Positions 11,531 through 48,528 of a DNA stretch of 63,210 nucleotides are shown here, one piece after another (within the stretch, counting starts at the first letter, position 1; each line of letters opens with the position of its first letter). The notes under the pieces are model-generated. The model made no database searches. It saw nothing but the letters and a program-made list of their open reading frames with translations, and was not told where the DNA came from. Made by a program: the position numbers and the translations under genes. The DNA is taken from NCBI GenBank assembly GCA_943354745.1, contig CALRDB010000003.1, forward strand, positions 1-63,210, read 5' to 3'. Source of the DNA: Candidatus Nomurabacteria bacterium (GTDB lineage: Bacteria > Patescibacteriota > Minisyncoccia > Phycocordibacterales > UBA10002).

Positions 11531-11887
11531 TTACCGCAGGTGCGCCTTGCACGTCATTGCCGCGGGATTCGCACCAAGTCGGTCAGTTTCAATTTCCTTT
11601 TTACAAACGATACAGGTCCCGTAACTTCCACTCTCGATTCGCTCAAGAGCGTCGCGAATCTCGGCAAGGCGTACTTCCAGTTGTCGTACGAGCGCCACAT
11701 TCTCTTCAAATGATTCGAGTTTATCGGCAACCTCATCTCGGTCCGCCGGTCTCTCTTCGGTATCGGCTTTTGGCTCCCAATCCTTCGAGTTTTCTGGATT
11801 ACGTCGCGCTACGGTGCTGAGTTCTTTCTCAACCAAGTCTTTTTCAGTGAGTAATGTTTGTTTAAATGTATGAGTGTTTGATGTCAT
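11531..11887 (-). CDS. TraR/DksA C4-type zinc finger protein
   Basis: ALERIESGSYGTCIVCKKEIETDRLGANPAAMTC; ends CKAH (three Cys seen, fourth ligand possibly His). Confidence 0.85.
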   Translation of the reverse strand: MTSNTHTFKQTLLTEKDLVEKELSTVARRNPENSKDWEPKADTEERPADRDEVADKLESFEENVALVRQLEVRLAEIRDALERIESGSYGTCIVCKKEIETDRLGANPAAMTCKAHLR

Positions 11888-12051
11888 ATGAATTAAGTAT
11901 ACGAAAATAAGAATTAAAGTCCAACGAATTGCAACGAATGAGAGACGTCACCTTTGGCTTTGGTAGGCCTGGCGAAGACGAACTATAAGGTTTTAATACG
12001 GCTTTTATTCGGAGCCATTTGTGTATTCGTATAATTCGTATCTTCGTATGT

Positions 12052-12993
12052 TTACCTCAGCCTTCCTCCCCCTGCCCTGTTAATGAGGACCTTTAAGGTA
12101 TCTTCATTGGTAGTAACAACAAGGGTCTGCTTATCGATAAAGGAATACAGAAAGACAATAGTTCCTTCTGGACTAAATATCGCACGGACGTCCTTATTCC
12201 GCACAATCGCATCTTTTACAGTAATCGTATTTTGAAGTGTTTCTAAGGTACTGCTCCCAACTTTCTGAAGTATGTTACGTGAGGAGACATCGAACAAGGG
12301 ACCCAAGGTATCGAGTATCGTTTCTTCCCAGGCAAGCATGCCAGCAAACGCGTAGTCGTATGACGAAACACTGAAAAGCAAAAAAGGTTTGCCTCCTTGT
12401 AGTCCGTGTACCCCTAGCGTTGGTGTGGTCCCGAGCGCGCGGATAAGTGACGGTGGCGTTGCTTCATCGAGTTTTGTTAGAAGCGCCTCGGTGGTAAGAG
12501 GAGAGGAGTTATCTGTAATTGGAATGATACGGATTTCGTTTTGTGGAACCGATAAGGCTTTGATACTGCTCGTGAGAGCCTTAAGTATACCTACGCGACC
12601 CTCAGTACCTTTAAGGGTGACACCGATAGAAAGAGGTATCTGTGTCTTCGGTTCAACCACCACTTTTGTTGGTGGCTTTTTGAAATAAAAGTAGGTCCCA
12701 ATACCAACACCTACCAACACGATGGCCCCTAAAGCCACGAACGCGAGAAGTTTGATGTTCCAGGGTGTGGTGATCGGGAGACTGTTCGAGATCTGGAATA
12801 CTTTTGAAGGTTTTGGTGTGGGTGGAGCAGGTACTTCCGATACCTCTTCCTTTTCTTGCTTAACCTGCCGCACACCTTCTGCAATGGCAATTGTGGCCTT
12901 AGAAACTTGTTGTTTCTTCATCATTTCCTCGACGTCGCTCTGGTAGGTATGAATACGCTTCAAAGCACCCTGTTCGTTCGATTTGGGAGGCAT
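12052..12993 (-). CDS. Hypothetical single-pass membrane protein (start MPPKSNE)
   Basis: IHTYQSD N-terminal motif, one TM segment, C-terminal LYSFID..TLVVTT; a type commonly seen in Parcubacteria. Confidence 0.7.
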   Translation of the reverse strand: MPPKSNEQGALKRIHTYQSDVEEMMKKQQVSKATIAIAEGVRQVKQEKEEVSEVPAPPTPKPSKVFQISNSLPITTPWNIKLLAFVALGAIVLVGVGIGTYFYFKKPPTKVVVEPKTQIPLSIGVTLKGTEGRVGILKALTSSIKALSVPQNEIRIIPITDNSSPLTTEALLTKLDEATPPSLIRALGTTPTLGVHGLQGGKPFLLFSVSSYDYAFAGMLAWEETILDTLGPLFDVSSRNILQKVGSSTLETLQNTITVKDAIVRNKDVRAIFSPEGTIVFLYSFIDKQTLVVTTNEDTLKVLINRAGGGRLR

Positions 12994-13041: not shown

Positions 13042-13845
13042 CTAGTCTTTTACCAACGTAGACTTCCACGATAACTCAAATATGGTTTTCATAATGCGGT
13101 GAATTGCCTCGTCCTCGATCACTGTCCCAATCATTTTCCCCTTTTCAAAATTCGCGATAGAAACCTTGTTTTCTCCATAGACGGTGATTTCCCCCACAAA
13201 AGGAAATTGCTCTTCTTTCACGAAACGCATTTCTGGCCGTATCTTCTTTTCTGTGTGTTCATAACGCCACACGGAAAAAGTGCGGTTCTCTTCCGTGTCG
13301 GGAAGAATGCCTCTTGTCGTAATACCGATTTTTTCTTTTTCACGCACATACTGGTTGAAGAACTTCGGTGGGAGAAATTGGCGGAGTTCCGCCGCGTTTG
13401 CGAAGGCAAGCATTTCGTAAGGACGGTTCACGGAAATATGGTCGGTATAAATAGCGAGTAATCCTTCAGCCCCTTCGTAGTAGGTGACTCTCGGCCGTTC
13501 ACCGTGAGCGCTGTAGAGACCTTCAATATCAGGAAGGACCGACTGTGCCCGCTCCGCACACTCGCGCGCCATTCCAACCTGGCTTTCTGCGTAGCGAACA
13601 ACCTTTTCCGGCTTCTCTATTTGGTAGAAAAGCTTGTTTTTCTTCTCTATTTCATTCACTAGTCCCCGAACCGACAACGTCAGTAGGACATGATACACAG
13701 TACTTCTATTTAAGCCGGTGTAGTTCGCCACTTTTGACGGATACGCCCCGCTCAGCTCCAGAAGGCAGAGATATACTCTCGCCTCTTTGTCGGAAAAGCC
13801 CGATTTTTCAAGCTTCTGCAGGAGTTCCGGGTGAGTAAATTGCAT
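13042..13845 (-). CDS. TrmB family transcriptional regulator
   Basis: GFSDKEARVYLCLLEL...GLNRSTVY wHTH; YYEG..G effector domain; EITVYGENKV. Confidence 0.88.
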   Translation of the reverse strand: MQFTHPELLQKLEKSGFSDKEARVYLCLLELSGAYPSKVANYTGLNRSTVYHVLLTLSVRGLVNEIEKKNKLFYQIEKPEKVVRYAESQVGMARECAERAQSVLPDIEGLYSAHGERPRVTYYEGAEGLLAIYTDHISVNRPYEMLAFANAAELRQFLPPKFFNQYVREKEKIGITTRGILPDTEENRTFSVWRYEHTEKKIRPEMRFVKEEQFPFVGEITVYGENKVSIANFEKGKMIGTVIEDEAIHRIMKTIFELSWKSTLVKD

Positions 13846-19977: not shown

Positions 19978-21516
19978 TTACTTCACCCAGTGTTTCTTTC
20001 GTATTTCAGAAAGTGTCTTTTCTTCTTCTTTTTCCTTCATTTCTTTCCCCTTCTTCCCTATTTGTTCAAGTTCCTTTTCAGGAAGACTTACAAGTTCTTT
20101 TGCGCGCTTTTCAAGGTATTCTTCTGTATTTCTTGCTGGATCATCTAATACTTCCTCTAAGAGAGCGTGTAAGGTATAGCCTATCTTCGGTCCAGGGGGA
20201 GTTTGTGTGAGTTCTATTATTCTACCGCCATTAATTTTGAGCATACCCACTGACAAGGGGTCACGCATAACCTCGTCTACCATAGAATGATACTTTCTAA
20301 GTCGGTACGGACTCTCTTTAGGCCTTCCTGTGCCTATACGGTCACATGTACGAACGTCCATAAGGTGCCAAATGTGCTCCTTACCTACTCTATTTACGAT
20401 TCTTCTGACAGCGGAATGAGTAATTTGTTCCGTATCTGAGAAAAACATGTGCCAGCGGACCAGTGTGGTAACGGTTTCGATCATTTTCTTTGGGAACGCC
20501 ATTCGAGTCATAATTTTGGCGGCCATTTTCGCTCCTACCATGTCATGGCCGTAGAACGTCCAATCCTTCTTCTCCTCTGACCAGCGTCTTGTGGCAGGCT
20601 TTCCAATGTCATGGAATAGGGCTGCAAGTCGTGTTTCCAGAGTGAAATCCTTCTTCGCCGAGTGTTCTACTGTTCGTAGGATGTGCTCGAAGACATCGAA
20701 CGAGTGTGCTTTGTTCTGTGCAACGCCGATTCCCTCCTCTAATTCAGGTAGCACCTGTTTCAGAATACCCAGCTTGTTGCACAAAATAAGTCCAATATGC
20801 GGACGTGGAGACATAACAATCCGTATAAATTCCTCACGGATACGCTCCCCAGCGATTTCTTTAAGGTGTCTAGCGTTGAGGGCAATTGCACTTTGTGTTG
20901 CTGGATCGATCGTGAAATCAAGTTCCATGGCTATACGAACAGCCCTTAGTATACGTAGAGCGTCTTCGCTGAATCGTGCTTCCGGTTCCCCCACCGTACG
21001 GATCGTCTTCTTCTTAAGGTCTATACGTCCATCAAAACGGTCTACTATCGTTCCTGCAAGTGTCAGGGCTATTGCATTAATGGTGAAATCACGACGTTTC
21101 AGATCATCCTCGAGCTTTGAGCTCCAGGTAACGGAATCAGGGCGTCTTTTGTCCGTGTAACCTCCTTCCAGGCGGTATGGCGTCACCTCAACAACCTTAA
21201 GAGTTGTGTCCTCTACCCCATCATTAACCACTCCGACCGTACCGTACTCGTTTTCATAGAAAGTGTTAGGAAATGAAGCTGTAATTTGTTCAGGAGTTGC
21301 GTTGGTGGTTATGTCCCAATCCTTTGGTTTTCTCCCAATTAGTAAATCTCGTACACATCCACCGATAAGATATGCCTCAAAACCCTTATTTTCCAAGGTC
21401 TCAGCAACTTTTGCTATTTCGGTCGGTATCTCCAACTTTAGCGTATTCTCGGCTTTTTCCACACCGATATTGTAGTATTTCTTTTGAAATTCGCCTAATC
21501 TAGCGTATGATTTCAA
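19978..21516 (-). CDS. cca: CCA tRNA nucleotidyltransferase / poly(A) polymerase family with HD domain (true start probably downstream)
   Basis: IGGCVRDLL, KDWDITT, DLKRRDFTINA, EDALRILRA, LFHDIGK. Confidence 0.9.
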   Translation of the reverse strand: MKSYARLGEFQKKYYNIGVEKAENTLKLEIPTEIAKVAETLENKGFEAYLIGGCVRDLLIGRKPKDWDITTNATPEQITASFPNTFYENEYGTVGVVNDGVEDTTLKVVEVTPYRLEGGYTDKRRPDSVTWSSKLEDDLKRRDFTINAIALTLAGTIVDRFDGRIDLKKKTIRTVGEPEARFSEDALRILRAVRIAMELDFTIDPATQSAIALNARHLKEIAGERIREEFIRIVMSPRPHIGLILCNKLGILKQVLPELEEGIGVAQNKAHSFDVFEHILRTVEHSAKKDFTLETRLAALFHDIGKPATRRWSEEKKDWTFYGHDMVGAKMAAKIMTRMAFPKKMIETVTTLVRWHMFFSDTEQITHSAVRRIVNRVGKEHIWHLMDVRTCDRIGTGRPKESPYRLRKYHSMVDEVMRDPLSVGMLKINGGRIIELTQTPPGPKIGYTLHALLEEVLDDPARNTEEYLEKRAKELVSLPEKELEQIGKKGKEMKEKEEEKTLSEIRKKHWVK

Positions 21517-21521
21517 TTATC

Positions 21522-21593
21522 GCTCTCGTGGTGAAATGGATATCACAACGGTCTTCGGAACCGTTATTGAGGGTTCGAATCCCCCCGAGAGCA
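21522..21593 (+). tRNA. tRNA-Arg(TCG), CCA not encoded
   Basis: GCTCTCG/CGAGAGC acceptor stem, ACGGT-CTTCGGA-ACCGT anticodon arm, GGTTCGAATCC T-arm. Confidence 0.93.
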
Positions 21594-21733
21594 TAGGCGA
21601 AGCGAAGGATGGAGAGGGGGCGCGGGGCGCTTCCAAGTGGGATTCGAAGCCCGATTGAGCATTTTTCGAGGTTTTTGCGAGGGAAAAGCCAATTGGGGTA
21701 CTGAAGCTGTAAGCTTCGAATCCCTCGAGAGCA
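21594..21733 (+). mobile_element. tRNA-3'-associated miniature element ending in a near copy of the tRNA-Arg 3' end
   Basis: ttcgaatccctcgagagca at 21715-21733 mirrors the tRNA end; gggattcgaagc (21638) is its inverted copy. Confidence 0.55.
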
Positions 21734-21784
21734 CTAGTTTTGCGGAAACACCGATTTCTGCTATCCTATTGTCAGTTAGGGTCT

Positions 21785-21855
21785 GCGGGTATGGTTTAGT
21801 GGTAGAACACGTCCTTGCCAAGGATGAGATTCGGGTTCGATTCCCGGTACCCGCA
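21785..21855 (+). tRNA. tRNA-Gly(GCC), CCA not encoded
   Basis: GCGGGTA/TACCCGC acceptor stem, CGTCC-TTGCCAA-GGATG anticodon arm, GGTTCGATTCC T-arm. Confidence 0.93.
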
Positions 21856-22078
21856 TAAATAACGAATGAAATGAGGTATTTGGCGGGTAAGCAATGTGCC
21901 TACGCACATTGCGCCCGGGAATCGAAAAGGTTCTCCCCTATCCAGTACTTATTTTTCTGAAAACAAGTACTGGATGGGAAACCTGTACTGCTCCTGTAAG
22001 CGCCCTGTTTGGCTAAGAGCGAAGCGATTAGTTACAAACAGTAGTCCCTTTAGGGGGAGAGATTTCCTGGTACCCGCA
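21856..22078 (+). mobile_element. tRNA-3'-associated miniature element ending in a near copy of the tRNA-Gly 3' end
   Basis: gatttcctggtacccgca at 22061-22078; ccgggaatcgaa (21915-21926) is the exact reverse complement of the T-arm ttcgattcccgg. Confidence 0.55.
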
Positions 22079-22207
22079 TAAAATAAAAAGAAATGAACGT
22101 TACTCCCTTTCTTCTTCGAAATTGGTGTGATGTCGAGATAAACGCAATTGGACAAAGCCTATAAACTGTGGATAAGACAGTGGATATGTGTATAAAGGAC
22201 AGGTTGA

Positions 22208-23086
22208 TGGTTCACGTGAAATCTATTTTACGGCCACAGATAAGGATTTATGGAAAAAGACAGATAAACTAAGTCCCTTAGTGTTTCACATGAAACATAC
22301 TGCATCAAAGATTGAAAATGTTGGTGAGTCAATATTTCTTCAGGTGGGAGTTAAGATCTTTCTTCGGAATGAAGATGGAAAGTATCTACTATTGAAGCGT
22401 TCTTTTGAACGGTATCCGAACATAGAAAATTTCTGGGACATACCAGGAGGGAGGATTATTCCGGGAACCAAGATCTTGGACAATATTGTTCGAGAGGTAT
22501 TCGAGGAGACTGGATTGTCTGTTAAGTCGAGTCCCATACTGCTGTATGTTCAGGATGTTTTACGTCTTCCTGGAAAACATATTGTTCGTTTAACCTTTTC
22601 CGCGTGCACTTCTGGTAATCCTGTGCTCGATGGGGAACATGATGCCTTTAGGTGGGTGACCCTGAAAGAAATGGAGGCTCTGAAGAAATTAGATAAATTT
22701 ACCCGTGAGATCATAGAAAAGAAGTTACTCAGCAAATAGAGTCATTTGTTTCATCTGAAACATATTTTTTGGAGAGTATGAGTCACACACAAAAAGTAGG
22801 TGCTGTCGGTGAGGAGTTGTCTGTAAGGTTCCTTGTGAAAAAAGGGTATGATGTCATTGATAGGAACTATCGGCGACCTTGGGGCGAGTTGGATATCGTC
22901 GCAAAGAAAAAGGGAAAGATACATTTTATTGAGGTTAAGACGTTGTCTTATAAGATTGTTTCATCTGAAACATCTAAAATAAAAGATTTCTTTCGTCCGG
23001 AAGACCATGTGAACGATGAGAAAGTCAAGCGTTTGGGCCGTATAATACAAACTTACCTTGGTGCGAAACATGTTTCATCTGAAACA
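22208..23086. promoter_or_regulatory. Cluster of five parS-like 16-bp palindromes
   Basis: Against TGTTTCACGTGAAACA: 22208 (13/16), 22282 TGTTTCACATGAAACA (15/16), and TGTTTCATCTGAAACA at 22747, 22957 and 23071 (14/16 each). Confidence 0.75.
22290..22739 (+). CDS. NUDIX hydrolase (ORF open from 22188; ATG 22290 more likely)
   Basis: WDIPGG.I.PG....NIVREVFEETGL Nudix box. Confidence 0.88.
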   Translation: MKHTASKIENVGESIFLQVGVKIFLRNEDGKYLLLKRSFERYPNIENFWDIPGGRIIPGTKILDNIVREVFEETGLSVKSSPILLYVQDVLRLPGKHIVRLTFSACTSGNPVLDGEHDAFRWVTLKEMEALKKLDKFTREIIEKKLLSK

Positions 23087-23173
23087 AAATGGCAATTCGA
23101 CGTCGTGGCTATAGTAATTGATGTCGAGGTAATGAAGGCAAAAATTAAATTTTTGGAAGATGTAACGATGTAG
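22778..23173 (+). CDS. yraN: YraN family (UPF0102) nuclease
   Basis: GAVGEE, DRNYRRPWGELDIVA, IHFIEVKT, QFDVVAI. Confidence 0.9.
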   Translation: MSHTQKVGAVGEELSVRFLVKKGYDVIDRNYRRPWGELDIVAKKKGKIHFIEVKTLSYKIVSSETSKIKDFFRPEDHVNDEKVKRLGRIIQTYLGAKHVSSETKWQFDVVAIVIDVEVMKAKIKFLEDVTM

Positions 23174-23273
23174 ACAGTAAAGGACGCAGTGTGTGTAAGA
23201 TGTCCTTAATTTCCTGTCTTTTAGAATATTTTCTAATCATATGTTAGTATCGTTGGGTCGGGACGGGTAAAGA

Positions 23274-23344
23274 CGGGGCGTAGTGTAACGGTAGCATTCA
23301 TGCTTTGGGAGCATGCGGTCCGAGTTCAAATCTCGGCGCCCCGA
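23274..23344 (+). tRNA. tRNA-Pro(TGG), CCA not encoded
   Basis: CGGGGCG/CGCCCCG acceptor stem, CATGC-TTTGGGA-GCATG anticodon arm, GTTCAAATC T-loop. Confidence 0.93.
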
Positions 23345-23516
23345 AATGAAGCGAATCAAGGTAAAGGATCCGGAATTTAAGCTGAAAGGAGGTCGGGGAA
23401 AAGGATTTTTCCCCGCGGAGGAAAATAGCGAGTCTTCGAGTTCTAGAAACCGTGGTTTCTGGGGCGCAACGCAGTGAACAGTGAACAGTGAACATTCTCG
23501 GTGTCCGAAAATATTT

Positions 23517-24290
23517 GTGAAAGTCATTGTCAACAAACTTGCTGTTGAGTATGCCGACGAAGGGAATGGACCCGTGATGCTCTTTCTTCATGGGTGGAAC
23601 ACTGATTTACATACATTTGATGCTTTAACTGCAGAGCTATCGAGAGATTTTCGAATAGCCCGTCTTGATCTCCCTGGTTTCGGAGGAAGTGAATTGCCCA
23701 AAGAATCTTGGGGGGTAGGGGAGTACTCTATTTTTGTTAAAGATTTCTGCGAAAAACTGGATATTACCCCCGTTGCGCTTCTTGGGCACTCATTTGGTGG
23801 GAGAATAGCGATCAAAGCGGTTGCGCGTGGTATCTTTACACCAGAAAAACTGATACTTCTTGGTTCTGCGGGTGTCGCAAGGAGGACGGTTGCGCGGGTT
23901 ATTACGACTAGTATCGTTGCTTTCAAGAATTTTGCCCGTTTTATACCGTCTTCCAACTTTTTTTATGCAAAAGGCCGTTTCTTCCTACGTAGGCTTGGGG
24001 GGTTCTACCAGCAACGTGAAAGTGATTATCATGCTGCGGGAGCACTAAAGAGTACCTTTTTGAAGGTGATTGCTGAGGATTTGAGCCCAGAAGCTAAAAA
24101 AATAAGCATCCCGACTCTACTTATTTGGGGAGAAGACGATACGGCGACCCCACTTTCCGAAGGAAAGCGCTTGCGAGAGCTCATTATAGGCTCTACACTT
24201 AAGGTTATTGCAGGGGCATCACATTTTGTACATCAAGAGAAACCATCTCAAGTTTCTACGTTAGTGAGAGAGTTTCTGCGTTGTCTATGA
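23517..24290 (+). CDS. Alpha/beta fold hydrolase (GTG start 23517 likely)
   Basis: FLHGW, LDLPGFGGS, GHSFGG nucleophile elbow, WGEDD, GASHF. Confidence 0.9.
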   Translation: MKVIVNKLAVEYADEGNGPVMLFLHGWNTDLHTFDALTAELSRDFRIARLDLPGFGGSELPKESWGVGEYSIFVKDFCEKLDITPVALLGHSFGGRIAIKAVARGIFTPEKLILLGSAGVARRTVARVITTSIVAFKNFARFIPSSNFFYAKGRFFLRRLGGFYQQRESDYHAAGALKSTFLKVIAEDLSPEAKKISIPTLLIWGEDDTATPLSEGKRLRELIIGSTLKVIAGASHFVHQEKPSQVSTLVREFLRCL

Positions 24291-30680: not shown

Positions 30681-31445
30681 ATGGACCACCAGGAACTACT
30701 CCAATCACTCGGACTATCCAAGAACGAGGCCAAGATATATGAAACCCTGCTTAGGCAGGGCGAGGTGGGCGTTGGTGTTATCTCGGAGAAATCCGGCGTG
30801 CATCGACGGAATGTGTACGATTCGCTGAACCGTCTTATGGAAAAGGGTCTTGTATTCGAGGTTGTTGAGTCGGTTGAGAACAAGTATCAGGCGTGTGAGC
30901 CGAAGAAGCTCACCGAGATAGTGATCGAGAAATTGGAGGCGGTAGACAAAGCATTGCCCGAACTTGAGAAACTCCACTTCAGTACTCCATCCACGTATCG
31001 CGTGCACACCTATCGCGGCAAAGAGGGGTGGAAACAGTACATGCGTGACATCATCAAGACCGGTGAGCCGTTCTACTCTATCGCCGCGCAGGGCGCGTGG
31101 CTGGATGAGCGAGTGAAATCATTTATTCCGGCTTTCCTCCAACAGCTCAAGGCAAAAAAGATACCGATGCACCATTTGTTTGATTATGAGGTGAAAGAAA
31201 ACAATCATCCGATTATCAAAGAGGTGGGTAAGGACTACAAATTTCTTCCGAAAAAGTACGCCACCACTTCAGGTATTGATATTTTCGGCGACCACGTGAA
31301 CATCATGCATCACCAGACCTTGGGCAAGGTCGGTACCGACGACGAAATTACCTTTACAGTTATTGTGAACAAAAATCTTGCCGATTCATTTCGAACTTGG
31401 TTTCAGTACATGTGGGACATGTGTCCGAAAACGAACGCGGACTGA
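30681..31445 (+). CDS. TrmB family transcriptional regulator
   Basis: LGLSKNEAKIYETLL..GVHRRNVYDSL wHTH; TYRGKEG effector domain; IDIFGDHV. Confidence 0.88.
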   Translation: MDHQELLQSLGLSKNEAKIYETLLRQGEVGVGVISEKSGVHRRNVYDSLNRLMEKGLVFEVVESVENKYQACEPKKLTEIVIEKLEAVDKALPELEKLHFSTPSTYRVHTYRGKEGWKQYMRDIIKTGEPFYSIAAQGAWLDERVKSFIPAFLQQLKAKKIPMHHLFDYEVKENNHPIIKEVGKDYKFLPKKYATTSGIDIFGDHVNIMHHQTLGKVGTDDEITFTVIVNKNLADSFRTWFQYMWDMCPKTNAD

Positions 31446-32176: not shown

Positions 32177-32791
32177 ATGGATAGACAAACTGCGATTAAA
32201 CAACTGGAAGAGCTAGAGCGGCTGGGTGGGGTAAAAAAGATGCGCCTTGCGGCCGAGGGGTGGAGGGAGGAGTGGCAGACGCTTATCTCAATCCTCATGT
32301 CCGCGCGGACGCGCGATGAAGTGACGGTGATTGTTGCGGAAAATCTGTTTGCGGAGTTCCCGACGCTAGTGGAACTTTTAAAGGCGAATCCAAAGGATGT
32401 GTCGAGGATCATCGGGCCGGTGAACTTTTTTCAAAACAAAACGAAATACGTCATCGCGATTTCCCGAAGGCTGCACGAAAAACACGGCGGCAAACCGCCG
32501 CGTACGATAGAAGAGCTCATCTTGCTCCCCGGCGTCGGTCGTAAAACCGCGAATGTCTTTATTTCAGAATATGGCGCTCCCGCTATCGGCGTGGACACGC
32601 ATGTCTCCTACATCTCACAAAAACTCGGGTGGACGAAGAGCAAAACACCCGACAAAATCGAAATTGATTTGAAAAACCTTTTCCCGCAGAACTTTTGGAG
32701 CCGCGTGAACGGCAGTTGCGTCCGTTTCGGCAAAACCTATATGAGCCGCATCAAAAAAGACGAGCTACTCCAAAAGATTTCCAAAATCTAA
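32177..32791 (+). CDS. nth: Endonuclease III-like HhH-GPD glycosylase lacking the 4Fe-4S motif (copy 1)
   Basis: LMSARTRD, LPGVGRKTAN, GVDTHV; no C-terminal Cys cluster. Confidence 0.85.
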   Translation: MDRQTAIKQLEELERLGGVKKMRLAAEGWREEWQTLISILMSARTRDEVTVIVAENLFAEFPTLVELLKANPKDVSRIIGPVNFFQNKTKYVIAISRRLHEKHGGKPPRTIEELILLPGVGRKTANVFISEYGAPAIGVDTHVSYISQKLGWTKSKTPDKIEIDLKNLFPQNFWSRVNGSCVRFGKTYMSRIKKDELLQKISKI

Positions 32792-36004: not shown

Positions 36005-36793
36005 ATGATAAATGAGCTATTAACGAAATTAGGCTTCAGTGATAAGGAGATTCAGGTGTATCTCGCCGTGCTTGAAAACGGTAAAATTGCACCTGCGCGG
36101 GTTGCTGCCGTTACCAACATCAAGCGCTCTACTGTCTATGCGGTGGCGAAAGAACTCCTGAAAAGAGGTGTTATTACCGAGGATGTTGAGGGTTCAGGTG
36201 GATATTTGGTCGCCTTACCTCCCGAAAACCTCAATTCCGCGGTAAAAGCTGAAGAGCAGGCGATTGCGGAGAAGAAGAAGATTATAAAGGAAGCAGTTTC
36301 AGAACTTCTGACGATACCACAGTCAAAATCGTACTCGGTTCCAAAAATGCGGTTCATTGACGAGTATAACGTGAAGGATTTTCTCTATCGGCAAACGCCG
36401 GTGTGGGAAGAAAGTATGTCGCTCACCAAGGAAACAACGTGGTGGGGATTCCAAGATCATACGTTCGTGGAAGACAAGGAATGCGGCGAATGGGTGGACT
36501 GGTATTGGAGCCGAGCGGCGGAAAAATTCGATTTGAAACTCATCTCCAATGATTCTGAGATTGAAGAGAAGATGAAAGCGAAGAATATTGAACGACGAGT
36601 GATTAAGTTCTGGAAGAAAGATTTCAAGTTTACCGCTACGACATGGATTCTTGGCGAGTATGTCGTCCTCATCATGTCCAAACAGCGTCCTCACTATCTC
36701 GTGGAGATTCACGATGCTGTGTACGCGCAAAATATGCGTGAAGTATTCCGCAATCTTTGGAATGTGATTGATATACCTAGCGCAAACTCATGA
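36005..36793 (+). CDS. TrmB family transcriptional regulator
   Basis: LGFSDKEIQVYLAVL..IKRSTVYAV wHTH; TWILGEYVVL. Confidence 0.88.
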   Translation: MINELLTKLGFSDKEIQVYLAVLENGKIAPARVAAVTNIKRSTVYAVAKELLKRGVITEDVEGSGGYLVALPPENLNSAVKAEEQAIAEKKKIIKEAVSELLTIPQSKSYSVPKMRFIDEYNVKDFLYRQTPVWEESMSLTKETTWWGFQDHTFVEDKECGEWVDWYWSRAAEKFDLKLISNDSEIEEKMKAKNIERRVIKFWKKDFKFTATTWILGEYVVLIMSKQRPHYLVEIHDAVYAQNMREVFRNLWNVIDIPSANS

Positions 36794-37401
36794 AAGAGAA
36801 AGCGATACGACAATTAGAGGAGTTGGAACGGCTTGGGAGCGTAAAGAAAATGCGCCTTGCGGCGGAAGGGTGGAGGGAAGAATGGCAGACCCTGATTGCG
36901 ATTCTCATGTCCGCGCGGACGCGCGATGAAGTGACGGTTATCGTGGCTGAAAATCTGTTTTCCGAATTTGGAACGCTCCAAGAAATTGGTAAGGCAAACC
37001 CACGCGATATCGCGCGGGTTATCGAGCCGGTGAACTTTTCTCAGAATAAAACAAAATACGTGATTGCTATCGCGGAAGTTTTGCTTAGGGAATACAAAGG
37101 GAACCCTCCGCACGAACTTGAAAAATTGATTCTACTTCCGGGTGTGGGACGCAAGACCGCAAATGTTTTTTTGGCGGAGTACGGGGCTGACGCCATCGGT
37201 GTTGATACACACGTTTCCTATATTTCGCAGAAGCTCGGATGGACCAAACATACGGACCCCGACAAGATTGAACAGGATTTGCTCGCGCTCTTTCCGCGGA
37301 CACACTGGCGAAAACTTAACTCCACACTGGTTCGCTTTGGGAAGACGTATCAGAGTAGAATAGAGAAAGACGAATTACTTTTGCGTATAAAGAAATGCTA
37401 A
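36790..37401 (+). CDS. nth: Endonuclease III-like HhH-GPD glycosylase lacking the 4Fe-4S motif (copy 2)
   Basis: Same motifs as 32177..32791 with long identical peptide stretches (KKMRLAAEGWREEWQTLI, SARTRDEVTVIVAENLF). Confidence 0.85.
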   Translation: MKEKAIRQLEELERLGSVKKMRLAAEGWREEWQTLIAILMSARTRDEVTVIVAENLFSEFGTLQEIGKANPRDIARVIEPVNFSQNKTKYVIAIAEVLLREYKGNPPHELEKLILLPGVGRKTANVFLAEYGADAIGVDTHVSYISQKLGWTKHTDPDKIEQDLLALFPRTHWRKLNSTLVRFGKTYQSRIEKDELLLRIKKC

Positions 37402-41546: not shown

Positions 41547-42419
41547 ATGCAGTGTATGAAGATTACACCGGTGCATATTCGGACGTTTCAAGAAACAGTG
41601 TTTCGCTTTTATACAAAACAGAGTAGGTCCTTACCATGGAGAGATGCACGCGACCCGTACGCGATTTTGGTTTCGGAAATAATGCTTCAGCAGACGCAGG
41701 CGGAGCGAGTGGTTCCTTTTTATGAAACGTTTCTTAAGAAGTTTCCCACTCTTCAGACACTTGCTCGGGCGTCCGTTGGTGAGGTGCTGCGATTATGGCA
41801 AGGACTCGGCTACAACCGGCGCGCGCTCAATTTAAAACGTTCTGCGGAAATGATTGTAAATGAATACGGAGGAGTTTTTCCAGAAACCGTTGAGGCGATA
41901 GACACGCTTCCCGGAGTCGGTCCGTACACTGCGGGAGCTGTCGCTGCCTTCGCTTTTGGCAACTCCTCCGCGTTTATTGAAACAAATATCCGTACTGTGT
42001 ATCTTCACTTCTTTTTTCGGGACAAGTTGAACGTGTCCGATGAAGACATCTTGACGGTGATCCGTCAGACCTTACCCGACGCCCAACATTCCAACATTCT
42101 CAAGAATGTTGGAATGTTGGGACGTAAAAAAGTAGTGCGCGAGTGGTACAACGCGCTCATGGACTACGGAGCAATGTTGAAAAAGAAAGAAGGGAATGAA
42201 AATGTCAGGAGCGCTGGCTACAAAAAACAGTCAAAGTTTAAAGGTTCACAAAGAGAGTTGCGCGGAGAGATATTGCGTAAAGCTTCGCATGGTATAGTCT
42301 ATGCATCAACCTTCGCAACACGTGAGCAAAAAGGCCTTTCTGTTTCACAAACTCTTTCGGATCTTGAATCGGAAGGGTTTCTGAGAAAGAAGGGAACTGG
42401 TTTTGTATATGCATCATGA
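41547..42419 (+). CDS. mutY: A/G-specific adenine glycosylase MutY-like (no 4Fe-4S Cys motif)
   Basis: DPYAILVSEIMLQQTQ, WQGLGYNRRA, LPGVGPYTA, IETNIRTV, ALMDYGA. Confidence 0.88.
   Translation: MQCMKITPVHIRTFQETVFRFYTKQSRSLPWRDARDPYAILVSEIMLQQTQAERVVPFYETFLKKFPTLQTLARASVGEVLRLWQGLGYNRRALNLKRSAEMIVNEYGGVFPETVEAIDTLPGVGPYTAGAVAAFAFGNSSAFIETNIRTVYLHFFFRDKLNVSDEDILTVIRQTLPDAQHSNILKNVGMLGRKKVVREWYNALMDYGAMLKKKEGNENVRSAGYKKQSKFKGSQRELRGEILRKASHGIVYASTFATREQKGLSVSQTLSDLESEGFLRKKGTGFVYAS
42083..42120. repeat. Perfect 18-bp inverted repeat inserted in frame in mutY
   Basis: ccaacattccaacattct-ca-agaatgttggaatgttgg, encoding QHSNILKNVGML. Confidence 0.8.
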
Positions 42420-44371: not shown

Positions 44372-44442
44372 GCGGGATTAGTTTAATGGTAGAACTGCAG
44401 TTTTCCAAACTGTAGGCGGGAGTTCGATTCTCCCATCCCGCA
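44372..44442 (+). tRNA. tRNA-Gly(TCC), CCA not encoded
   Basis: GCGGGAT/ATCCCGC acceptor stem, GCAGT-TTTCCAA-ACTGT anticodon arm, GTTCGATTC T-loop. Confidence 0.92.
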
Positions 44443-44645
44443 TACCCAAAAGAAATGACCGGCCTTTGCCGGTCATTTCTTTTGGGTATGCGGAGATGAG
44501 CAAGTGAACTGCTTCACTTTCGTGGAGAATCGAAAAGCGGAGCCATGTTTTTCAGTAGAAAAACAGGCGAGCTAGGGTCGAGAATTTCGTGAGCGGCGGC
44601 GAACGAAAATTCATGACCGATCCGCGAAGCTTCTCCCCTCCCGCA
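44443..44645 (+). mobile_element. tRNA-3'-associated miniature element ending in a near copy of the tRNA-Gly 3' end
   Basis: Long hairpin starting in the tRNA 3' end (ccgcatacccaaaagaaatgaccgg...ccggtcatttcttttgggtatgcgg); inverted T-arm ggagaatcgaa; terminal ttctcccctcccgca. Confidence 0.55.
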
Positions 44646-46793: not shown

Positions 46794-46962
46794 ATTTCTG
46801 ATTATTTATTCTGGAATAATTTTCCCACGAACTTGCAATTCTGTCTAATAAGTGTTAAAATAGAGACATCAAAAGTGGATAATATGGCTCTAATGCGTGG
46901 AGTAGATGTCAAAAACTGTCAGATTTATTGACTTTTTGTGCTTTGGGGTAGATACTAAACGT

Positions 46963-47694
46963 ATGATAGAAACCTTAAAATTGCTTGGAATAAAAGACAA
47001 AGCCGCGCATGTATACAGCGCGGCTCTTGCTCTCGGAACCTCTTCCGTCAAGGATATTGCCGAAAAAGCGGCCCTCAAGCGGCCAACGGTCTATGTATAC
47101 CTTGAAGAGTTGGCAAAAGATGGCTTTGTCCAAAAGATCACGATCGGCAAGAAAGAGTATTACCAAGCGACTTCGCCGCGGCTTATTGAAATGCGTCTTG
47201 AGGAGAATCTAAAGTCGCTCAAAAAAGAGATGCCGCATCTTGAGATGCTCCACATGCAAGCGCAAGGTAAACCGGGTGTCACGGTCTTTGAAGGAGAAAG
47301 AGGATTGAATCAGCTCTATGAGGAAGTGAAGCGCACCAAGGACCTTATCTTCTGGTCGGACCTTTCCTCGGTGGAAGCGCTGTTTCCGGATACGGTTCGT
47401 AAAATAAGCGAGGCGATTCTTGATAATAAAATCTTTACACGCGAGATTCTCGCCGATACGCCGGAAGCACGGGCAAGTTCCCGCCGGTTCAAGGTGGTTG
47501 CGGCGGATTTCTACATGGGACGTCTTGCGACCGGTCCAATCTTCAACGACAGCGTTATTTATGACAACGTCGTCGCGTTTTTCCGTATTCAGCAAAACAA
47601 TCTCTTTGTCGTTCGTATCGAAGACCCGACGATTGCCGTAACGATGAAAACGCTATTCGAAATGGCCTGGCAGTCGGCCAAGCCGTTTAAGTAA
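46963..47694 (+). CDS. TrmB family transcriptional regulator (ATG 46963)
   Basis: LGIKDKAAHVYSAAL..LKRPTVYVYL wHTH; VFEGERGL; DSVIYDNVV. Confidence 0.87.
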   Translation: MIETLKLLGIKDKAAHVYSAALALGTSSVKDIAEKAALKRPTVYVYLEELAKDGFVQKITIGKKEYYQATSPRLIEMRLEENLKSLKKEMPHLEMLHMQAQGKPGVTVFEGERGLNQLYEEVKRTKDLIFWSDLSSVEALFPDTVRKISEAILDNKIFTREILADTPEARASSRRFKVVAADFYMGRLATGPIFNDSVIYDNVVAFFRIQQNNLFVVRIEDPTIAVTMKTLFEMAWQSAKPFK

Positions 47695-47745: not shown

Positions 47746-48528
47746 TCAGTTGCGGAGCTTGGAGTCGAGACGTTTGGCCTCTGCCCAGGCGAGTTCGTAG
47801 ATTTTCTTCATCGCGTCGGCGATCTCCGCGCTTTCAATGATGATGCCGAGCTTTTCGCGCCATGACGCAATCAAGATTTTATTGTCGTAAATGTTTATTT
47901 CCGGAGAAAAAGAAAATTTATCTGGAGGTATAAAGGCAATCTCTCGTTTTTCTTCTTCACCATAGGGCACGCGGGCGCGCGCTATCGGCGTGTGGGGAAC
48001 AATCGCGCGTATCGCGATACCCGCGTCTGCTCGTCGTTTGTAGTATTCGGGAAAGTAATTCGGGAGACCTTTGTGCATATCTTCCACGTTGGCGTACGCA
48101 CGGATAGGTTCCTGTGAAGTAAGTGTATCTTCGTACACCTGTTTTAAACCATCAGTTCCTTCGTAAAATTTTATTTTCGGCCGGTTTTGCGTCGCGTGTA
48201 CTGAACGGAGCTGGGGGAGAAGTGCTCCAGCCTTTTCGATGCGATCCCTCGCAAGTTCCGCTTCGCGCTTTAAGTAGGCAACCACCGATTCCGGCGGTTC
48301 TGCGGCATACTCTTGTTTCGGCTCCTTTCCGGTCACGTTTACAATGCCTTTGCTTGAGAGGGAATCCAAGATGTCATAGCCGGTCGTGCGGTTGATGCCC
48401 GCCTTACGGGCTATTTCAGTAACAGTGCCATGTCCAAGCTCCAGCAATGCCACATAGACAATTGATTCCTTTTCGCTAAACCCAAGTGTGTGCAGGGTAG
48501 AGGGGAGTTCTTTGTTTTGTGTTTCCAT
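47746..48528 (-). CDS. TrmB family transcriptional regulator
   Basis: LGFSEKESIVYVALLEL..GINRTTGYDIL; FYEGTDGL; EINIYDNKI. Confidence 0.9.
   Translation of the reverse strand: METQNKELPSTLHTLGFSEKESIVYVALLELGHGTVTEIARKAGINRTTGYDILDSLSSKGIVNVTGKEPKQEYAAEPPESVVAYLKREAELARDRIEKAGALLPQLRSVHATQNRPKIKFYEGTDGLKQVYEDTLTSQEPIRAYANVEDMHKGLPNYFPEYYKRRADAGIAIRAIVPHTPIARARVPYGEEEKREIAFIPPDKFSFSPEINIYDNKILIASWREKLGIIIESAEIADAMKKIYELAWAEAKRLDSKLRN

Follow-up and report, generated by a model that had tools for sequence, protein, structure and literature searches.

Several described systems share features with the sequences considered here. Integrative elements that target tRNA genes regenerate the tRNA 3' end as an att site, integron attC and the attP(+) hairpin of CTX-phi are folded single-stranded att sites, and REP/REPIN sequences are imperfect palindromes with a conserved 5' tetranucleotide and a RAYT transposase. 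Here we analyze a stretch of 63,210 nucleotides from a Candidatus Nomurabacteria bacterium (Patescibacteriota; assembly GCA_943354745.1, contig CALRDB010000003.1, positions 1 to 63,210 of the forward strand), hereafter the window, in which three of the four tRNA genes are directly followed by non-coding, hairpin-rich insertions of ~140-220 nt that repeat the end of the tRNA in sense and antisense. These inserts are probably miniature (~110-220 nt), non-coding and highly structured insertion elements at tRNA 3' ends in Patescibacteria, non-autonomous and either mobile or duplicative.

Copies of tRNA 3' Ends Exceed Chance

The frequency of such copies was assessed in 80 syntenic loci from related Patescibacteria genomes, comprising 223 tRNAs (our locus labels are L001 and so on), by Smith-Waterman comparison of the last 24 nt of each tRNA with the 350 nt downstream and upstream, other tRNAs being masked. 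A direct copy scoring at least 13 follows 40 of the 223 tRNAs and is found in none of the 221 upstream regions, while an inverted copy scoring at least 12 follows 31 tRNAs and is likewise absent upstream; indeed, no upstream control reaches 13 for direct or 11 for inverted copies. The arms are carried by about one quarter of the sampled tRNAs. In the window, the direct and inverted scores are 15 and 11 for tRNA-Arg, 14 and 12 for tRNA-Gly(GCC), and 13 and 11 for tRNA-Gly(TCC), above all upstream controls, which confirms for these three genes the layout described in an earlier note made from the sequence alone. For tRNA-Pro, where the same layout had been proposed, the claim is not supported: both scores of its trailer are 7, at background level, neither copy is significant, and neither of the covariance models described below matches the trailer. 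The note had also described the inverted copy as one of the T-arm region; the T arm is present, but in both Gly inserts the copy spans the acceptor 3' strand too, with a hairpin dividing it exactly at the T-stem/acceptor junction.

Short matches are easily obtained where T-loops are conserved, and the tRNA-Pro case does stand at chance level. Nevertheless, the probability of chance similarity or of an assembly artefact is practically negligible, given the empty upstream controls, the recurrence of the same architecture in independent assemblies from many studies, and strong covariation; for the three window tRNAs, the upstream controls together with the model matches refute it.

Two Families of Conserved Cores

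The general layout starts with the tRNA, whose 3' segment we call A, and continues with a variable hairpin X, often terminator-like; an antisense arm A', directed against the T-loop, the 3' strand of the T-stem and often the acceptor 3' strand; a core of type A or type B; and a sense arm A'', which copies tRNA positions ~56-73. The core is closed by a stem, P1, whose two strands are A' and A''; A' could just as well pair with the tRNA itself. Motifs are common to trailers from different genomes and different tRNAs, and two families could be modelled.

In type A, the order is A' (ending ..GAATCGAA), AGCCGGAG, a hairpin, GAGGCGGGGTCGC, a second hairpin, GTGAC and A'' (starting CGATTC..). The consensus is a three-way junction composed of P1 (A':A''), P2 (GCC/GGC with a GA-rich internal loop) and P3 (GGUCGC/GUGACC with a conserved G.U pair). 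The corresponding covariance model, R1, was built from 8 seeds and run on 82 sources, where it gives 48 matches, the Gly(TCC) insert of the window included. Paired cells amount to 89.6%, against ~41% when the partners are slid, and double changes occur in 33 of 33 pairs, counts that lean towards structure because the model itself served to fit the alignment. A second mode of type A consists of a perfect palindrome with arms of 20-24 nt, which starts in the last 5-7 nt of the tRNA, holds a terminator-like hairpin and abuts the core. Type B is a three-way junction as well, with A', GCC, a long hairpin, GGG-TACT, GAAGCT-GTA-AGCTTC and A''; its model, R2, has 22 matches overall, and 92.5% of cells are paired, against 31-48% with partners slid.

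Searches with Rfam 15, at gathering and at permissive thresholds, of the window and of four loci with canonical copies recovered tRNAs only and nothing credible over the inserts at E <=1-10; among known structured RNAs (self-cleaving ribozymes, T-box, tmRNA), no covariance model came near its gathering score. Look-alikes of hammerhead, K-turn and box C/D motifs (CUGA, GA pairs) were discarded after comparison by eye with the respective consensus, which they do not satisfy, and they have no Rfam match.

Shorter inserts (~55-110 nt) also occur behind tRNA-Pro (L046, L050, L063, L070) and tRNA-Thr (L163), with a copy of the 3' end and without three-way-junction core or antisense arm. In the Pro-type short inserts, termed type C, the downstream copy is the clade-wide canonical 3' end and it is the resident tRNA that differs.

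The Inserts of the Window

The positions of the tRNA genes, inserts and insert parts are collected in Table 1.

Table 1. tRNA genes, inserts and insert parts in the window.
Feature	Position	Strand	Description	Evidence
tRNA-Arg(TCG)	21522-21593	+	no encoded CCA	ARAGORN; Rfam tRNA 62.3 bits
Arg insert	21594-21733	+	140 nt, canonical type B (X, A', three-way-junction core, A'')	model R2
X of Arg insert	21594-21636	+	variable 5' part; GCGAAGC at 21597-21603 and G+C-rich hairpin	sequence, fold
A' of Arg insert	21639-21650	+	antisense arm GGGATTCGAAGC	inverted repeats; type B consensus P1
Core of Arg insert	21651-21714	+	type B core	RNAalifold consensus; covariation
A'' of Arg insert	21715-21733	+	direct tRNA copy, T-loop to discriminator, TTCGAATCCCTCGAGAGCA	direct repeats; Smith-Waterman 15
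tRNA-Gly(GCC)	21785-21855	+	no encoded CCA	ARAGORN; Rfam 68.7 bits
Gly(GCC) insert	21856-22078	+	223 nt, degraded or rearranged type B	sequence; fold z -7.8; partial R2 match
tRNA-Pro	23274-23344	+	no encoded CCA	
tRNA-Pro trailer	23345-23470	+	outside the phenomenon	Smith-Waterman 7/7; no R1 or R2 match
tRNA-Gly(TCC)	44372-44442	+	no encoded CCA	ARAGORN; Rfam
Gly(TCC) insert	44443-44645	+	203 nt, diverged type A	model R1; fold; sequence

The Arg insert is the clearest case, with an R2 match at 21637-21733 of 99.6 bits (E 1e-21). The 3' ~20 nt of the tRNA are its segment A. The arm A' is complementary to the T-loop and the 3' strand of the T-stem, and constitutes the 5' strand of P1, pairing at 12 of 12 positions with the downstream copy and at 12 of 13 with the tRNA. 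The core comprises the long hairpin P2 (GCCCGATTGAG...CCAATTGGGG), the junction TACT and the short hairpin P3 (GAAGCT-GTA-AGCTTC), whose 3' strand (21712-21717) overlaps the first bases of A''. The latter, which is the 3' strand of P1, is 1 nt shorter than the tRNA: the tRNA end recurs there as TTCGAATCCC-TCGAGAGCA, and a repeat finder reports 12 nt at 92% identity, or more if a 1-nt indel is allowed.

In the Gly(GCC) insert, the 5' half is still that of type B; in place of the 3' strands of P3 and P1, ~60 extra nt precede A''. It comprises a copy of the acceptor 5' strand, GCGGGTA (21883-21889), a hairpin (21890-21913), A' CCGGGAATCGAA (21915-21926, pairing 12/12 with the T arm), a P2-like hairpin (21937-21978), GTACTG..CTGTAAGC (21985-22001), the ~60-nt extra hairpin with GCGAAGC (22019), and A'' (22064-22078). 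The direct copy extends over 19 nt (22064-22082), 18 of them identical, 4 nt of it lying beyond the tRNA, and R2 matches only partially (21915-22015, 11.1 bits). A 63-nt piece of this insert (21998-22060) matches, with 7 differences, contigs of ~100x depth in two lake metagenomes that hold the window genome at ~10x; a more abundant organism in them carries related sequence.

In the Gly(TCC) insert, X is a perfect terminator-like hairpin (44443-44488), followed by the acceptor complement TGCGGAGATG (44489-44498), a hairpin, and the inverted copy A' GGAGAATCGAA (44524-44534). The core reads AAGCGGAG-hairpin-CGAGCTAGGGTCGAG-hairpin-CATGACCGAT, with GCGAAGC at 44624, and the direct copy A'' is CTTCTCCCCTCCCGCA (44630-44645); R1 matches at 44520-44635 with 38.1 bits (E 3e-8). 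The folding energy of tRNA plus trailer, compared with shuffled sequences, gives z=-7.8 for Gly(GCC), -11.5 for Gly(TCC) and a weaker -2.65 for Arg. All three folds join the inverted copy to the tRNA 3' half and the far copy to the 5' acceptor strand.

Insertion, Distribution and Exchange Between tRNA Genes

Evidence for insertion comes from sites that are empty in relatives. At the tRNA-Arg site, L001 is filled with an orthologous element, while in L002, L003 and L006 a conserved flank (ATTTTGCGGAA..TTTCTGCTATCCTGTT), which is likely the promoter region of tRNA-Gly, comes directly after the tRNA; the same flank comes after A'' in the window and in L001. At the tRNA-Gly(GCC) site, L003 is empty and L001 filled, with one common flank, and other relatives hold different inserts or remnants. 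Two traits of tRNA-integrating elements are present, namely direct repeats of a tRNA 3' segment with an intact tRNA at one side, and a presence/absence polymorphism with a precise empty site.

Metagenome contigs were also searched with the exact three-part pattern of the type A core, which yields at least 123 cores. Among the matches listed, 87 of 123 lie less than 300 nt downstream of a tRNA on the same strand, covering 32 anticodon types, and A'' copies upstream sequence in 49 of the 87 tRNA-associated cores, against 6 of 76 in a downstream control; about one fifth have no tRNA within 300 nt, some because ARAGORN had missed one. The duplicated part of the tRNA is typically 18-21 nt and mostly 19-21 nt long, from around position 56 to the tRNA end, with which the repeat ends exactly in 24 of 50 cases, and the whole duplicated segment ranges from ~5 to ~31 nt. 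Long "flank repeats" turned out to be tandem copies of the element, and tandem arrays exist in L046, L091, L092, L158, L163 and L180.

Behind tRNA-Arg in L030 and tRNA-Pro in the related L046, the cores are 98.5% identical, while the arms differ, each being specific for its tRNA; cores are, on the whole, more alike within than between loci (p = 7e-6). Decayed copies are numerous: they lack A'' or A', or carry, as behind tRNA-Gly in L046, a foreign A' of Arg type. The inserts are thus insertions at the DNA level, behind a tRNA that stays intact, much as with att sites, and the elements are multi-copy, with cores exchanged between tRNA loci.

Of the two proposals made in the earlier note, that of a non-autonomous tRNA-targeting element agrees best with these data: empty sites exist at two of the tRNAs, as the note had suggested looking for, the elements are multi-copy and form tandem arrays, R1 and R2 match across tRNAs and genomes with duplications in excess of the upstream controls, the same cores are shared over ~30 tRNA types, and the inserts encode nothing. 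Its idea that the copies were templated locally stands for the arms, which follow the local tRNA, and fails for the cores, which different loci and genomes have in common. Its remark that the window holds no integrase agrees with the domain scan: among the 40 window open reading frames (ORFs) scanned with Pfam, none has a reverse transcriptase, integrase or transposase domain, and no recombinase of the kind used by tRNA-integrating elements is coded in these ORFs or in the inserts.

Direct repeats of tRNA 3' ends are exactly the trace that tRNA-targeting integrases leave, and tandem accretion occurs. The inserts could then be scars of larger integrated elements (attL, remnant, attR) after loss of the interior, or attP-only mini-elements moved by the integrase of such an element. 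The type C inserts behind tRNA-Pro, with their canonical downstream copy beside a differing tRNA, also point that way, as does one locus in particular. In L174 (7303-12820), a 5.4-kb insertion separates tRNA-Val from a complete type A mini-element. It codes for a large serine recombinase of 598 aa (Resolvase, Recombinase and Zn-ribbon domains), the 3' end of whose gene overlaps the tRNA-Val 3' end; a further ORF (11737-12282) resembles a phage small terminase by eye and has no Pfam match, and the far end carries a degraded copy of the anticodon-to-T region of the tRNA, then the mini-element. However, nothing is missing from this mini-element, which has an X of its own and a displaced tRNA end, and the large element appears to have integrated later and independently. 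Furthermore, random deletion remnants would not share one covarying core behind ~30 different tRNAs, a search of the 80 loci for an autonomous version found no second copy of a tRNA 3' end more than 350 nt away, and the L174 recombinase has no close relative in viral contigs. We regard an origin as scars of this kind as improbable.

The type A core pattern has 8 matches in viral contigs, 7 of which are chance matches in G+C-rich genes. The eighth (L082, 2839-3190, from IMG/VR) is a true tandem type A pair beside a tRNA-Ser-like 3' fragment at the contig end, in a neighborhood that appears ordinary bacterial by eye (ORFs similar to UDP-glucose 4-epimerase, cytidine deaminase and GDSL lipase).

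Arms, Strand Specificity and a Possible RNA Function

A' is complementary to both A and A'', and where these differ it follows A at 27 sites and A'' at 17. Two mutually exclusive helices with conserved complementarity in both are thus available, as in switch-like RNAs. A'' is identical to the tRNA over 18 nt in 53 of 101 copies, and its fit to the 5' strands of the tRNA, compared with that of A, is better in 0 cases, worse in 24 and the same in 24. Because A'' never fits better, the upstream tRNA is the working gene, and the reading of the insert as a tRNA intron (group I or bulge-helix-bulge, with A'' as the true 3' exon) fails, a complete tRNA preceding each insert.

Between the window and L001, the acceptor and T stems of tRNA-Arg have diverged at many positions and the two arms have changed along with them, the core being ~89% identical (an estimate by eye). 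Arms that follow changes of the tRNA require repeated recombination with it, hairpin-templated correction of the quasi-palindrome, or selection on pairing. Such correction is a known mutational process.

The fold also has a preferred strand. G.T wobble cells exceed A.C cells by 97:31 in type A and 23:6 in type B, so the tRNA-sense strand is the one that folds, be it as RNA or as single-stranded DNA. The motif GCGAAGC, present in all three window inserts, occurs in trailers 21 times in sense and 3 times in antisense orientation, and the apical loops are mostly C-GACG-G, C-AGCA-G and GNA triloops, none of them GNRA or UNCG. These loops and the GCGAAGC motif hint at DNA-type hairpins, without deciding between RNA and single-stranded DNA.

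A host cis-acting RNA, in line with the antisense clamp on the T arm that was the other proposal of the note, would account for much of this. As a clamp or switch, A' would have two possible partners: the 3' half of the tRNA, whose folding and processing would then be blocked, or A'', in which case the three-way junction would be closed. The core could bind a protein or a ligand, serve in processing, or resemble a tRNA-like minihelix that RNase P, RNase Z or the CCA-adding enzyme might recognize. The inserts always lie downstream, on the tRNA strand; in minimum-free-energy folds, A' is the partner of the tRNA 3' half and A'' that of the 5' acceptor strand; the sense-strand fold is conserved, with its G.U pair; the complementarity to the tRNA is real and tRNA-specific, with A' following the tRNA more often than A''; more than half of the A'' copies examined are identical to the tRNA; and in many copies the hairpin that splits A' exactly at the acceptor/T-stem boundary gives a tRNA-like topology. 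Nevertheless, the insert is absent at the same tRNA in close relatives, the arms occur on a minority of the sampled tRNAs, and the sporadic presence, decay and mismatched arms speak against a core host function; tandem arrays and copies in non-tRNA contexts also exist, and the tRNA is transcribed and able to fold before A' exists. Judged by these patterns, a primary role as host RNA is rather unlikely, though the RNA may additionally act on its tRNA.

The same sense-strand fold would also suit a retro-mobile element. Here an RNA co-transcribed with the tRNA, with a tRNA-like stem at its end, would undergo reverse transcription, with A' acting like a primer-binding site, and homology would direct its re-insertion at tRNA genes. 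Neurospora mitochondrial retroplasmids behave in this way at tRNA 3' ends. The complementarity of A' to the 3' ~20 nt of the tRNA, up to T54, and the left boundary placed exactly at the tRNA end in nearly half of the cases would agree with it. However, the scanned ORFs of the window include no reverse transcriptase, the window junctions lack CCA where the gene lacks CCA, and some duplications carry 10-12 nt of genomic flank, which implies a DNA or precursor template and not mature tRNA. Mature tRNA was thus rejected as the general source of A'', and this alternative has a very low probability.

Mechanism and Weight of the Evidence

We favor the interpretation of the inserts as selfish elements that would be spread or copied in trans. 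This might depend on a recombinase for which the folded stem, a mimic of the tRNA, is the att site, or on microhomology at both the T-loop and the tRNA end, and the arms would be kept matched to the local tRNA by recombination or by hairpin-templated correction. Co-transcription with the tRNA would be expected, any effect on pre-tRNA folding being a side effect or a secondary function.

Two models can be envisaged. In the first, a free circle (A*-X-A'-core) would fold into a rod whose stem A*:A' copies the target; a crossover around position 55/56, in the T-loop, would produce the order tRNA(1-55), A*, X, A', core, host(56 onward), which explains why A' matches both A and A''. The second invokes template switching at a pair of microhomologies, one in the T-loop (CGAWTC) and one at the tRNA end; a donor core would thereby be copied to another tRNA locus, and the arms would then undergo templated correction. 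The circle model may be extended, tentatively and against the balance of probability, to a new type of self-targeting mobile element: a tiny rod-shaped circle (A*-X-A'-core) of single-stranded DNA or RNA, whose tRNA-mimicking stem would serve as both address and attachment site, which would integrate at ~55/56 and rebuild the tRNA, and whose three-way junction would be catalytic (ribozyme-like) or recruit a recombinase.

Several observations weigh against a mobile or duplicative element. Neither an enzyme that would mobilise the inserts nor a free form or excision product was found. Of the sequencing data searched, only the Logan contigs of the two lake metagenomes contain the window, and no RNA run contains L158 or L136; the apparent joints in these contigs derive from tRNAs of other species and not from excision, and the read-derived data, consisting of contigs only, are uninformative on excision. 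At the left end, X is not conserved in sequence, unlike what transposons usually show, and the variable length of the duplicated segment excludes a fixed staggered cut. The arms track lineage-specific tRNA changes even in orthologous copies (window versus L001), so a simple insertion model needs extra processes. Some cores lie away from tRNAs or ahead of tRNA-Ser, so the tRNA 3' end is not the sole context. Finally, the conserved unpaired nucleotides of the core and the sense-strand fold would fit a host RNA function as well.

As to these other contexts, some cores stand behind a terminator with a T-tract in the role of A, the inverted copy reaching 15/15 in L052. In four metagenome loci (L121, L131, L146, L171), type A cores lie upstream of an intact tRNA-Ser, beside duplicated tRNA-Ser 5' fragments; there the core is apparently inserted in the D-loop region of the fragment, and the A-X-A'-core-A'' logic is built on D-arm sequence.

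Genomic Setting of the Window

The window has ordinary chromosomal gene content: ORF translations include PNPase, ribosomal protein S15 and the CCA-adding enzyme, and Pfam matches include NusA, RNase Y, ClpP, trigger factor and H+-pyrophosphatase. The closest relatives of the CCA-adding enzyme, at 86% amino-acid identity, are found in metagenome-assembled genomes labelled Candidatus Taylorbacteria, Parcubacteria or Patescibacteria. All four tRNA genes (ARAGORN, Rfam) lie on the + strand and none has an encoded CCA; a promoter-like TTGAAA-16-TATGAT (21484-21511) precedes tRNA-Arg(TCG).

Near 22 kb (region ~20000-24000), the GC skew changes from negative to positive, and a perfect DnaA box, TGTGGATAA (22167-22175), lies just 3' of tRNA-Gly(GCC), within a block conserved in relatives, CTGTGGATAAGACAGTGGATATGTG; on these sequence features the region may be that of the replication origin. 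The palindrome GTTTCAYNTGAAAC occurs four times in the window, all within 800 nt (22283-23085), with a chance expectation of 0.23; two copies are in frame within a YraN-like ORF (22769-23173), translated VSSET, and the motif is kept in the equivalent intergenic region of relatives. Directly 3' of the tRNA-Pro trailer, CAGTGAA is repeated three times in tandem (23472-23493), overlapping the start of an alpha/beta-hydrolase-like ORF (23481-24290). Paralogues are also clustered: five TrmB-family regulators (13042-13845, 30681-31445, 36005-36793, 46906-47694, 47746-48528) and three HhH-GPD glycosylases (32177-32791, 36790-37401, 41547-42419) are found within 63 kb.

Comparison With Known Systems

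Full-text literature searches returned no description of such elements and Rfam holds no family for them; as far as could be found, the family appears to be widespread and undescribed. If mobile, the elements would be among the smallest site-specific ones known and apparently abundant across the Patescibacteria, a huge and poorly understood bacterial radiation, and their address would be a base-paired copy of the target instead of fixed terminal repeats, a new way for a non-coding element to pick a safe harbour. If acting as RNA, they would constitute a lineage-wide layer of pre-tRNA control or processing. Either way, R1 and R2 let annotators label hundreds of "intergenic" hairpin regions beside tRNAs of the candidate phyla radiation, and should help prevent their mis-calling as pseudo-tRNAs or prophage att scars.

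With riboswitches, attenuators and the T-box, the inserts share the two mutually exclusive helices allowed by A, A' and A'', a three-way junction closed by P1, and the reading of tRNA sequence by pairing. Unlike in these systems, the platform (the tRNA) lies upstream of the core, pairing involves the T arm and acceptor 3' strand instead of the anticodon or NCCA, the distribution is sporadic, and no Rfam family matches.

Like REP/REPIN and sequences resembling miniature inverted-repeat transposable elements (MITEs), the inserts are short, non-coding, extragenic, hairpin-forming and multi-copy, evolve in concert within a genome, and lie after 3' ends or terminators, where they would be co-transcribed. 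They differ in having neither terminal inverted repeats of fixed sequence nor a short fixed target-site duplication, and in taking their arms from the neighboring tRNA. The scanned window ORFs include no RAYT or other transposase, and P2 (GCCGGAG..GAGGC) resembles REP in style only. A MITE was rejected on account of the left end, a variable hairpin, and of the unfixed duplication length (~5 to ~31 nt).

Integron attC and the CTX-phi attP(+) offer a further comparison: there, too, a stem that reproduces the double-stranded target is formed by distant arms, conservation is greater in structure than in sequence and, within the unit, is confined to the 3' side, arrays are formed and the fold is strand-specific and mismatch-tolerant. 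Here, the target is a tRNA gene and not attI or dif, R/L boxes and Xer sites are absent, the stem spans only the T-loop-to-3'-end half of the T-arm palindrome, and the single-stranded form is putative; no GTTRRRY/RYYYAAC boxes are seen at the stem base in the sequences inspected, and no cognate recombinase was found. The P1 stem A':A'' does reproduce, in a strand-specific manner, positions ~56-65 or beyond of the tRNA gene, as a folded single-stranded att site would.

Finally, with tRNA-targeting integrative elements and cis-mobilizable elements (CIMEs), the latter a small form without recombinase, the inserts have in common the position in the 3' part of the tRNA, the regenerated tRNA, the direct repeat from T-loop to 3' end and tandem accretion. 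No integrase partner was found for them, and, unlike those elements, they measure 110-220 nt, fold into a covarying three-way junction, carry an internal antisense copy of the att segment and use one core for ~30 different tRNAs. That the principle of targeting is itself new is a serious possibility.

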